Origin: Escherichia phage HMD-6
Sequence record: PQ505080.1
Strand: one strand, 5' to 3'
Length of the DNA stretch: 64,000 nt
The position numbers and the translations under genes were made by a program. Positions 23,348 through 23,665 of the stretch are shown here, in pieces (within the stretch, counting starts at the first letter, position 1; the number at the start of each line of letters is the position of its first letter). The notes beneath the pieces are model-generated. The model ran no database searches, was not told where the DNA came from, and was given only the letters and a program-made list of their open reading frames with translations.

Positions 23348-23665
23348 TCAATCCCAAAAGTCAATCTTTACTTTACCTTTTCCCTTACCTTTCTTTCCAC
23401 CGCATTTAGCCAACTGGCGTGCTGCAACATCCACCATACGGTCAGTTGCCTCGTAAGCATCGCTACCTTTAGCTTTGGCGATAACTTCTTTCCCAGAATT
23501 GTCAAAAATAAAAGCCATAACTTCCTGGTGATCATTTTCAACTTTTACACTCACACGTGCATAGTTGGCAGATGGGTGCAAACGCTCCAGTTTGGACATT
23601 TTGTGGGAAATGAAAGACACCATACCTTCAGTGATCTCTACGTTGCCAGTAATTTCAATCTGCAT
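23348..23665 (-). CDS. hpf: ribosome hibernation promoting factor / RaiA (YfiA) family protein
   Basis: MQIEITGNVEITEG...KLERL...VSVKVE...AKGSDAYEATDRMVDVAARQLAK closely parallels the bacterial HPF signature (MQLNITG..VEITE..KLE..LKVE..AEGQDMYAAID..KLARQL). Confidence 0.7.
   Translation of the reverse strand: MQIEITGNVEITEGMVSFISHKMSKLERLHPSANYARVSVKVENDHQEVMAFIFDNSGKEVIAKAKGSDAYEATDRMVDVAARQLAKCGGKKGKGKGKVKIDFWD

Follow-up and report, generated by a model that had tools for sequence, protein, structure and literature searches.

The question raised by this locus of Escherichia phage HMD-6 (PQ505080.1) is why a phage should carry a relative of the bacterial ribosome hibernation factors HPF and RaiA, and in which direction such a protein would act on the ribosomes of its host. 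The window, by which we mean the whole analysed stretch of 64,000 nucleotides, contains an open reading frame (ORF) of 105 codons, from ATG to TGA, that occupies exactly positions 23348..23665 on the minus strand, with the TGA stop codon at 23348-23350; translation of the plus strand over the same positions is meaningless. The original prediction, made from the letters of the DNA, had placed an HPF/RaiA homolog of 105 residues here. The ORF is real, its strand, which had been left unstated, is minus, and the motifs quoted at that time (MQIEITGNVEITE, KLERL, VKVE and AKGSDAYEATDRMVDVAARQLAK) are all present in the product, MQIEITGNVEITEGMVSFISHKMSKLERLHPSANYARVSVKVENDHQEVMAFIFDNSGKEVIAKAKGSDAYEATDRMVDVAARQLAKCGGKKGKGKGKVKIDFWD, which we call phage HPF. 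Our overall explanation, to which we give a probability of about 0.5, is that phage HPF is a phage-controlled occupant of the HPF/RaiA site of the ribosome and has been retained under selection.

The gene itself is already known, from GenBank/RefSeq annotation and from a 2019 paper. By tblastn the product is 100% identical to the proteins of FV3 (AEZ65272) and EPFV3, and it is the ortholog of rV5 ORF144 (gp139); the window is phage DNA of an rV5-like Vequintavirus, the 4 kb around the gene sharing 98.3% of their nucleotides with Escherichia phage FV3 of that genus and 80-98% with 120 rV5-like Vequintavirus records. The gene lies in a block of 88 ORFs, mostly small, of the rV5 genome paper (PMC3606486), and the rV5 RefSeq record annotates ORF144 as similar to a Klebsiella sigma-54 modulation protein; the names found in records are sigma 54 modulation factor, RaiA, HPF and ribosome hibernation factor. 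Mizuno et al. 2019 (Nat Commun 10:752, PMC6375957) listed FV3 AEZ65272 (105 residues; their Table 1) and the rV5 protein as phage HPFs and put forward the hypothesis that viral HPFs might compete with their cellular homologues, and the same observation was made for five further rV5-like phages (PMC6969025). A search of the literature after 2019 for the function of viral HPFs returned nothing beyond Mizuno et al. and the mention in PMC6969025, and a 2025 preprint on hibernation-factor evolution makes no mention of phages.

Profile searches, as the original prediction had proposed, bear out the homology. The sole Pfam match of phage HPF is PF02482 (Ribosomal_S30AE), which covers profile positions 1-83 of 88 at E=1.8e-12 and scores 48.3 bits where the gathering cutoff is 23.7. 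On the NCBIfam model of the HPF/YfiA family, TIGR00741, the score of 45.9 bits exceeds the cutoff of 40.9 by a small margin, E. coli HPF reaching 125.9 and RaiA 121. In a phmmer search of the PDB the protein matches E. coli HPF (2rql, 4v8h, 6h4n) at E about 5e-12, with residues 1-89 co-linear. With the hpf and raiA genes of E. coli K-12 (NC_000913.3) as reference, phage HPF is 43% identical to E. coli HPF and 25% identical to RaiA, the identity between HPF and RaiA being 40%. By these scores the resemblance to the HPF family is far beyond chance. The dimerisation domain of long HPFs, PF16321, is present in many of the cellular homology matches and was not found by the Pfam scan in the 105-residue phage protein.

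The predicted fold agrees with the sequence comparisons. An AlphaFold (AF2) model built on a family alignment of 34 sequences has a predicted local distance difference test score (pLDDT) of 84 overall, of 86-96 in the core and below 50 for residues 90-105; a model built from the single sequence was discarded (pLDDT 61, with a spurious beta-strand in the tail). The folded core, residues 1-88 (23402..23665, minus strand), is delimited by the AF2 model, the Foldseek matches and the ratio of nonsynonymous to synonymous substitution (dN/dS), and has the topology beta-alpha-beta-beta-beta-alpha, with strands at residues 2-7, 33-42, 47-55 and 60-67 and helices at 13-29 and 70-88. In a Foldseek search of the PDB the top 36 matches are all HPF, RaiA or protein Y, the best being 6h4n_x, the E. 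coli HPF in the hibernating 100S ribosome, with a root-mean-square deviation of 1.2 Å over 89 columns and a target-normalised template modelling score of 0.86. Taking profile, pairwise and fold evidence together, we regard it as virtually certain that the phage ORF encodes a genuine short member, though a strongly diverged one, of the HPF/RaiA (Ribosomal_S30AE) family. The fold also bears on a literal reading of the label "sigma-54 modulation factor", i.e. that the protein regulates RpoN-dependent transcription. The case for such a role is one of names, namely the historical name of the family (hpf adjoins rpoN in the bacterial chromosome) and the annotation text of the phage records; in solved structures and in the literature the family is found on the ribosome, and the phage gene adjoins no sigma factor gene, so that we give this reading next to no credence.

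Within the family the phage protein stands apart. On the HPF equivalog model PRK10470 it scores 55.8 bits against a cutoff of 125, where E. coli HPF scores 204.8 and RaiA 70.5, and on the RaiA equivalog model PRK10324 it scores 17.6 bits against a cutoff of 158. Judged by these models, phage HPF is on the HPF side of the family, yet further from HPF than the paralogue RaiA is, and the RefSeq name "RaiA" is unsupported at the subfamily level, given the 17.6 bits on the RaiA model and the 25% identity. When 1.84 billion cluster representatives were scanned exhaustively with HMMER, P0004 (about 64-65%) was the only relative above 50% identity, and the closest cellular relatives were 31-45% identical, the best of them, P0007, being an ordinary enterobacterial-type HPF with 173.9 bits on the HPF equivalog model. 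A word-indexed protein search and a scan of IMG/VR gave nothing but near-identical phage copies. Since no cellular relative exceeds 45% identity among the 1.84 billion representatives, the capture of hpf appears to be ancient, and we reject the "relatively recent" transfer suggested in 2019, against which this best cellular identity and an HPF-model score below that of RaiA both speak.

To estimate selection, the HPF gene was extracted from 21 related loci and dN/dS was calculated over the 88-codon core, with 20 distinct nucleotide sequences and 153 Vequintavirus pairs, which are not independent of each other. The mean is 0.30 for dS and 0.0145 for dN, which gives a ratio of about 0.05, and 32 codons of the core vary synonymously only while 13 carry amino-acid changes, a pattern that points to strong purifying selection. 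By tblastn the protein is found in 118 phage records, with all matches but one at least 90% identical, the exception being a Salmonella enterica genome record that matches with its own HPF-family gene (42%); among the 120 rV5-like records with this region in common, 118 (about 98%) have the gene. The single relative above 50% identity, P0004, is encoded on contigs of 125-137 kb (Logan assemblies ERR6997038, ERR4623478 and SRR25571739), where the HPF gene is syntenic with that of the window and its gene neighbours are homologous to those of the window (57% and 40% identical). The shared flanking genes indicate that the HPF gene was in place before the two lineages split. The P0004 lineage was not found in a collection of 50,697 phage records, and NCBI labels its protein "Escherichia coli"; it is probably an undescribed relative of Vequintavirus.

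The gene also has expression signals of its own. Directly upstream, the promoter scan places a sigma-70 promoter, TTGACA-17-TATCAT (23713..23741, minus strand), that agrees with the consensus at 11 of 12 positions, and a Shine-Dalgarno sequence, AAGGAG (23672..23677, minus strand), can be read from the sequence 6 nucleotides before the ATG, where a ribosome-binding site is annotated in Murica and Mangalyan. The same promoter is named "Sigma70-type promoter P144" in the rV5 record and is predicted in Gotham, and the context of its -35 hexamer, AAACTGTTGACAC, is invariant in 21/21 related loci, the 64%-identity clade included. Because the promoter is near consensus and is followed by a good Shine-Dalgarno sequence, host RNA polymerase should be able to transcribe the HPF gene without a phage factor, and from the type of promoter we infer early expression by the unmodified host enzyme.

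Selection, synteny and promoter together bear on whether the gene could be a passenger, that is, a captured copy of host hpf without function for the phage. Such a view could draw on a nonsense codon at position 4 in phage YP-6 and on the frameshifted tails of two isolates. It sits poorly with a dN/dS of about 0.05, with retention in about 98% of rV5-like genomes as well as in the syntenic 64% clade, with the conserved dedicated promoter and with a capture old enough that no cellular relative exceeds 45% identity, and the selection and synteny data essentially exclude it. In Escherichia phage YP-6 (OQ376695.1) codon 4 is changed from GAA to TAA and the annotated coding sequence is truncated, starting at the internal Met15; the TAA reflects either a knockout that arose naturally or an error in sequencing.

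Whether phage HPF could still dock at the canonical site was judged from the residues through which HPF/YfiA contacts Gram-negative ribosomes, as described in a 2025 cryo-electron microscopy preprint (10.1101/2025.10.07.680626), according to which the conserved basic residues of helix alpha2 that touch 16S rRNA are K80, R83, K87, K89 and K91 in E. coli numbering. Of these, R83, which contacts m4C1402, K87 and K91 are kept under the same numbers in the phage protein, whereas K80 is changed to V80 and K89 to G89; V at position 80 also occurs in two cellular members of the alignment, P0010 and P0023. At the phosphates near m3U1498, K26 is kept as K25 and Q29 is replaced by R28, with Arg known at this position in cellular HPFs. 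The contact of T53 with the m2G966 motif is changed to F52, while H62 at the same motif, which is V in P. aeruginosa, is conservatively replaced by I62. At the C-terminus of uS9, E60 is kept and H55 is changed to F54. K64 and K66, on the rRNA-facing strand beta4, are conserved in both phage clades, and position 64 touches C1398 in K. quasipneumoniae YfiA (10.1101/2025.10.07.680626).

A partly altered interface could also mean that the HPF fold has been put to another use, with a different host target, protein or other RNA, and the ribosome role lost. There is precedent for this in Gp1.2 of phage T7, which has an HPF/YfiA-like structure yet is a dGTPase inhibitor. However, the homology of phage HPF to HPF is clear over the whole core, the key rRNA contacts R83 and K87 do not vary in either phage clade, Gp1.2 is only weakly matched in structure and no result points to an alternative partner, and we consider such a change of target distinctly improbable.

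The one published experiment on a phage HPF of this type requires a closer reading. In the work of Mizuno et al., E. coli NM522 cells expressing rV5 HPF from pBAD were harvested at an OD600 of 1, their ribosomes were pelleted through a sucrose cushion containing 500 mM NH4Cl, and the 70S/100S fractions were analysed by mass spectrometry (PMC6375957). The original prediction had held that a failure to associate with ribosomes would speak against it, and the rV5 ortholog is indeed missing from the washed 70S/100S particles, but so are the host factors: host HPF (score 210) and RMF (217) are listed in the crude extract (Supplementary Data 5) and are absent from the ribosome fraction (Supplementary Data 4), and terms for host HPF and RMF are missing from the other two ribosome tables as well (PMC6375957, Supplementary Data 2-5). 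As this preparation failed to retain host HPF and RMF, the assay was blind even to a true short HPF and its negative result is uninformative; the published binding test is thus one without a working positive control. The same tables show host RaiA in the washed ribosomes of cells expressing viral bS21 (score 22.6) and of cells expressing viral bL12 (score 137, 6 spectra), whereas RaiA is not among the 71 proteins of the ribosome fraction from cells expressing phage HPF, though it is present in their extract with a score of 188 (PMC6375957). The absence of RaiA fits displacement by phage HPF. The main text of PMC6375957 is silent on RaiA, YfiA and RMF and does not discuss this pattern of host proteins.

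On the basis of the retained contacts, phage HPF would use K25, E60, R83, K87 and K91 to dock in the channel for tRNA and mRNA when host 30S/70S ribosomes are vacant, and we consider it moderately likely that the protein acts on the ribosome at the canonical site. With K80V, K89G, T53F and H55F the binding is probably altered and more salt-labile, and the disordered Lys/Gly tail probably adds non-specific affinity for rRNA. No phage RMF partner turned up, the window not having been searched for an rmf homolog. With no RMF partner known here and no dimerisation domain in the protein, phage HPF would most likely be a competitor of host RaiA/HPF and probably not a promoter of 100S hibernation, a direction of action that we find plausible while holding it at somewhat less than an even bet. 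Competition of this kind would keep idle ribosomes intact and quickly reusable for phage mRNAs, limiting the hibernation imposed by the host. In its strongest form, in which weak and reversible binding to the pocket would evict host RaiA (and HPF) and return idle ribosomes to the translatable 70S pool, the proposal is tentative and, in our view, rather unlikely.

The canonical alternative, second in our ranking, is that phage HPF plugs the decoding channel of vacant ribosomes, silencing them and shielding them from nucleases, for instance in a setting of host mRNA destruction or starvation, which would add to host shut-off or save ribosomes for late phage translation. The fold is consistent with this, the best structural match being a ribosome-bound HPF, as is the retention of R83, K87, K91 and K26; hibernation factors are reported to protect ribosomes from nucleases (PMC8406268; 10.1101/2025.11.04.686544), and because the host's own HPF and RMF were likewise missing in the negative assay, an HPF-like mode of binding is compatible with it. 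On the other hand, no increase in 100S particles and no effect on growth or on the ribosome profile was reported on expression (PMC6375957), a potent inhibitor expressed early from a sigma-70 promoter should block the translation of the phage as well, K80, K89, T53 and H55 are altered, and the protein is without the long-HPF dimerisation domain and without an RMF partner, although rmf was not searched for in the window. We consider imposed hibernation doubtful. Of what the original prediction had drawn from a phage copy of the gene, the homology therefore stands, and direct manipulation of host ribosome activity, or stress-induced shutdown of translation, is not established.

Several findings weigh against phage HPF being a site occupant of the kind we favour. 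Four contacts that are strongly conserved in Gram-negative HPF/YfiA are altered (K80V, K89G, T53F and H55F), and between the two phage clades only 5/12 contact positions are identical, against 64% of residues overall, which argues that the canonical interface is only partly under constraint. The protein falls below RaiA on the HPF equivalog model and is barely over the family cutoff. In the published experiment rV5 HPF was present in the crude extract and undetected in 70S/100S, and the 100S peak was unchanged (PMC6375957); as these data comprise one sample per condition, are non-quantitative and include no empty-vector table, the displacement of RaiA is only a lead. Finally, the TAA codon of YP-6, if real, means that the HPF gene may be dispensable for laboratory propagation.

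Past the folded core, the C-terminal tail of residues 89-105 (GGKKGKGKGKVKIDFWD; 23351..23401, minus strand) is rich in Lys and Gly and, by its pLDDT, predicted to be disordered. From the charge calculation the tail has an isoelectric point (pI) of 10, and the core is acidic (pI 5.9) and near the core of E. coli HPF (pI 5.7). The end of the tail varies between isolates (WD, GE, LD or none). The promoter scan gives a second sigma-70-like promoter here, TTGACT-16-TGCTACAAT, i.e. (TGC)TACAAT (23337..23364, minus strand), with 10 of 12 consensus positions and a TG extension, which is also predicted in Gotham. Its -35 hexamer lies inside the HPF codons for I101-D102-F103, and the last two codons and the stop codon fall within the spacer. 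Both hexamers are invariant in all Vequintavirus-type loci and the spacer is variable, which would explain the WD, GE, LD and absent endings, and the extreme C-terminus of phage HPF thus appears to be shaped at least partly by the promoter of downstream genes. The P0004 clade is without the tail-overlapping promoter, yet its tail is basic as well. In APCEc02 and Murica, single-base indels in the G/A-rich run GGTAAGGGGAAAGG (window 23370-23400) lead to frameshifted tails, which read RKKGKGERQSKD or stop following KGKAK; this homopolymeric tract is either prone to sequencing error or truly variable.

The second promoter would drive the genes downstream, a hydrophobic peptide of 33 residues (23237-23338) and an ORF of 89 residues. 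Its -10 hexamer overlaps the ATG of the conserved 33-residue peptide ORF (MSMIKKLVPNVEIACFEIMFAIAVVVNVLGYGY; 23237-23338, minus strand), and because of this overlap the transcript might begin at or after the ATG, so that the peptide may start elsewhere or be made from a leaderless mRNA. Upstream of the HPF gene, RNA folding gives a 7-bp hairpin, AAGAGGG/CCCTCTT (23684..23704, minus strand), between the -10 hexamer of the first promoter and the Shine-Dalgarno sequence. The hairpin, which would lie close to the transcript's 5' end or right at it, is conserved across Vequintavirus loci and absent in the P0004 clade. It might stabilise the 5' end or terminate transcription of the upstream gene weakly, and a terminator scan found nothing around the HPF gene. 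A structured RNA element at 23684-23704 is not claimed, as there is one covarying pair, with a covariation term of -0.02 and a folding z-score of -0.2.

The 89-residue neighbor (22941-23210, minus strand) was considered as a second HPF and rejected, with no Pfam match, a BLASTP E value of 2.6 against HPF and an hhalign probability of 0.2%. It is called "sigma 54 modulation factor" in ECP26, S127 BCL3, APCEc02, A6-1 and others, and since in APCEc02 and A6-1 the neighbor bears this label while the true homolog is "hypothetical", the label has slipped by one gene and been propagated. In OR062528.1, MT884009.2 and MT884011.2 the HPF ortholog is mis-annotated as "ATP-dependent protease La Type I". 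Eighteen "Campylobacter phage" records of the MG0656xx series are rV5-like Vequintavirus genomes, 92% identical to the window; their assignment to a Campylobacter host seems doubtful, and A141, the one inspected, is titled UNVERIFIED. P0006, a protein of 1160 residues from the representative library, aligns eight separate times with residues 35-81 of phage HPF (E=3e-9) and has the appearance of partial HPF-like beta-sheet units repeated in tandem. Elsewhere in the window, seven tRNA calls are clustered at 60477-61289 on the plus strand (Arg-TCT, Tyr, Ser, Thr, Met, Pro), among them a 99-nucleotide call by ARAGORN (60946-61044) whose anticodon has four bases (atcc) and which may reflect a tRNA with an intron, a degenerate tRNA or a false one.

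Phage HPF is thus a strongly diverged, selectively maintained HPF-side protein, probably expressed early, whose ribosome interface has been partly remodelled. New here are the purifying selection, the retention at the same locus in the 64% clade, the divergence beyond RaiA, the lost contacts and the tail; the near-consensus sigma-70 promoter of the gene, annotated as P144 in the rV5 record, is also counted as new. The analysis adds a measure of the divergence from cellular HPF, the flaw in the positive control of the published test and a competitor hypothesis that can be tested. Direct phage homologs of host ribosome regulators are few, and rV5-like phages are common in therapy and biocontrol collections, so that a phage HPF that reversed or imposed hibernation would be relevant to the way in which virulent phages deal with hosts that grow slowly. 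If the protein does relieve hibernation, rV5-like phages could exploit slow-growing or stationary E. coli in the gut, and the absence of RaiA from the published mass spectrometry tables would be the first trace of this activity.

Compared with known systems, the closest cellular counterpart is the short HPF of E. coli (YhbH; 2RQL, 6H4N), with which phage HPF shares the length class, the fold and the residues K26, E60, R83, K87 and K91. It differs in a beta1-alpha1 loop that is 1 residue shorter, a beta3-beta4 hairpin that is 1 residue longer and a 17-residue Lys/Gly tail in place of the KDKLKQH of HPF, as well as in having an early-type promoter, a location outside the rpoN operon and no reported effect on 100S particles. 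E. coli RaiA (YfiA, protein Y) shares the fold and binds the 30S site of HPF, and its flexible C-terminal extension past helix alpha2 overlaps the RMF site and blocks 100S formation; the phage tail, by contrast, is basic, with a pI of 10, and shares no sequence with the tail of RaiA, which is acidic at its end. The rV5 protein (ORF144/gp139) and the phage HPFs of Mizuno et al. 2019 (PHROG 12469) represent the same gene, the rV5 protein being 98% identical, and apart from the end of the allele, ...IDFWD here and ...IDFGE in rV5, there is no substantive difference. A Foldseek search of predicted viral structures gave further HPF-fold proteins, at 18-26% identity, in Cronobacter phage GAP32, Escherichia phage PBECO4 and others; the S30AE proteins of GAP32 and PBECO4, which are large myoviruses, have the HPF fold but belong to PHROG 8990 rather than 12469, and are most simply explained as independent acquisitions. 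T7 Gp1.2, the dGTPase inhibitor, is likewise a small phage protein whose closest structural relatives are HPF and YfiA, and the model of phage HPF matches its fold weakly, but Gp1.2 is without sequence homology, has a three-stranded sheet and another interhelical angle, and targets Dgt rather than the ribosome.

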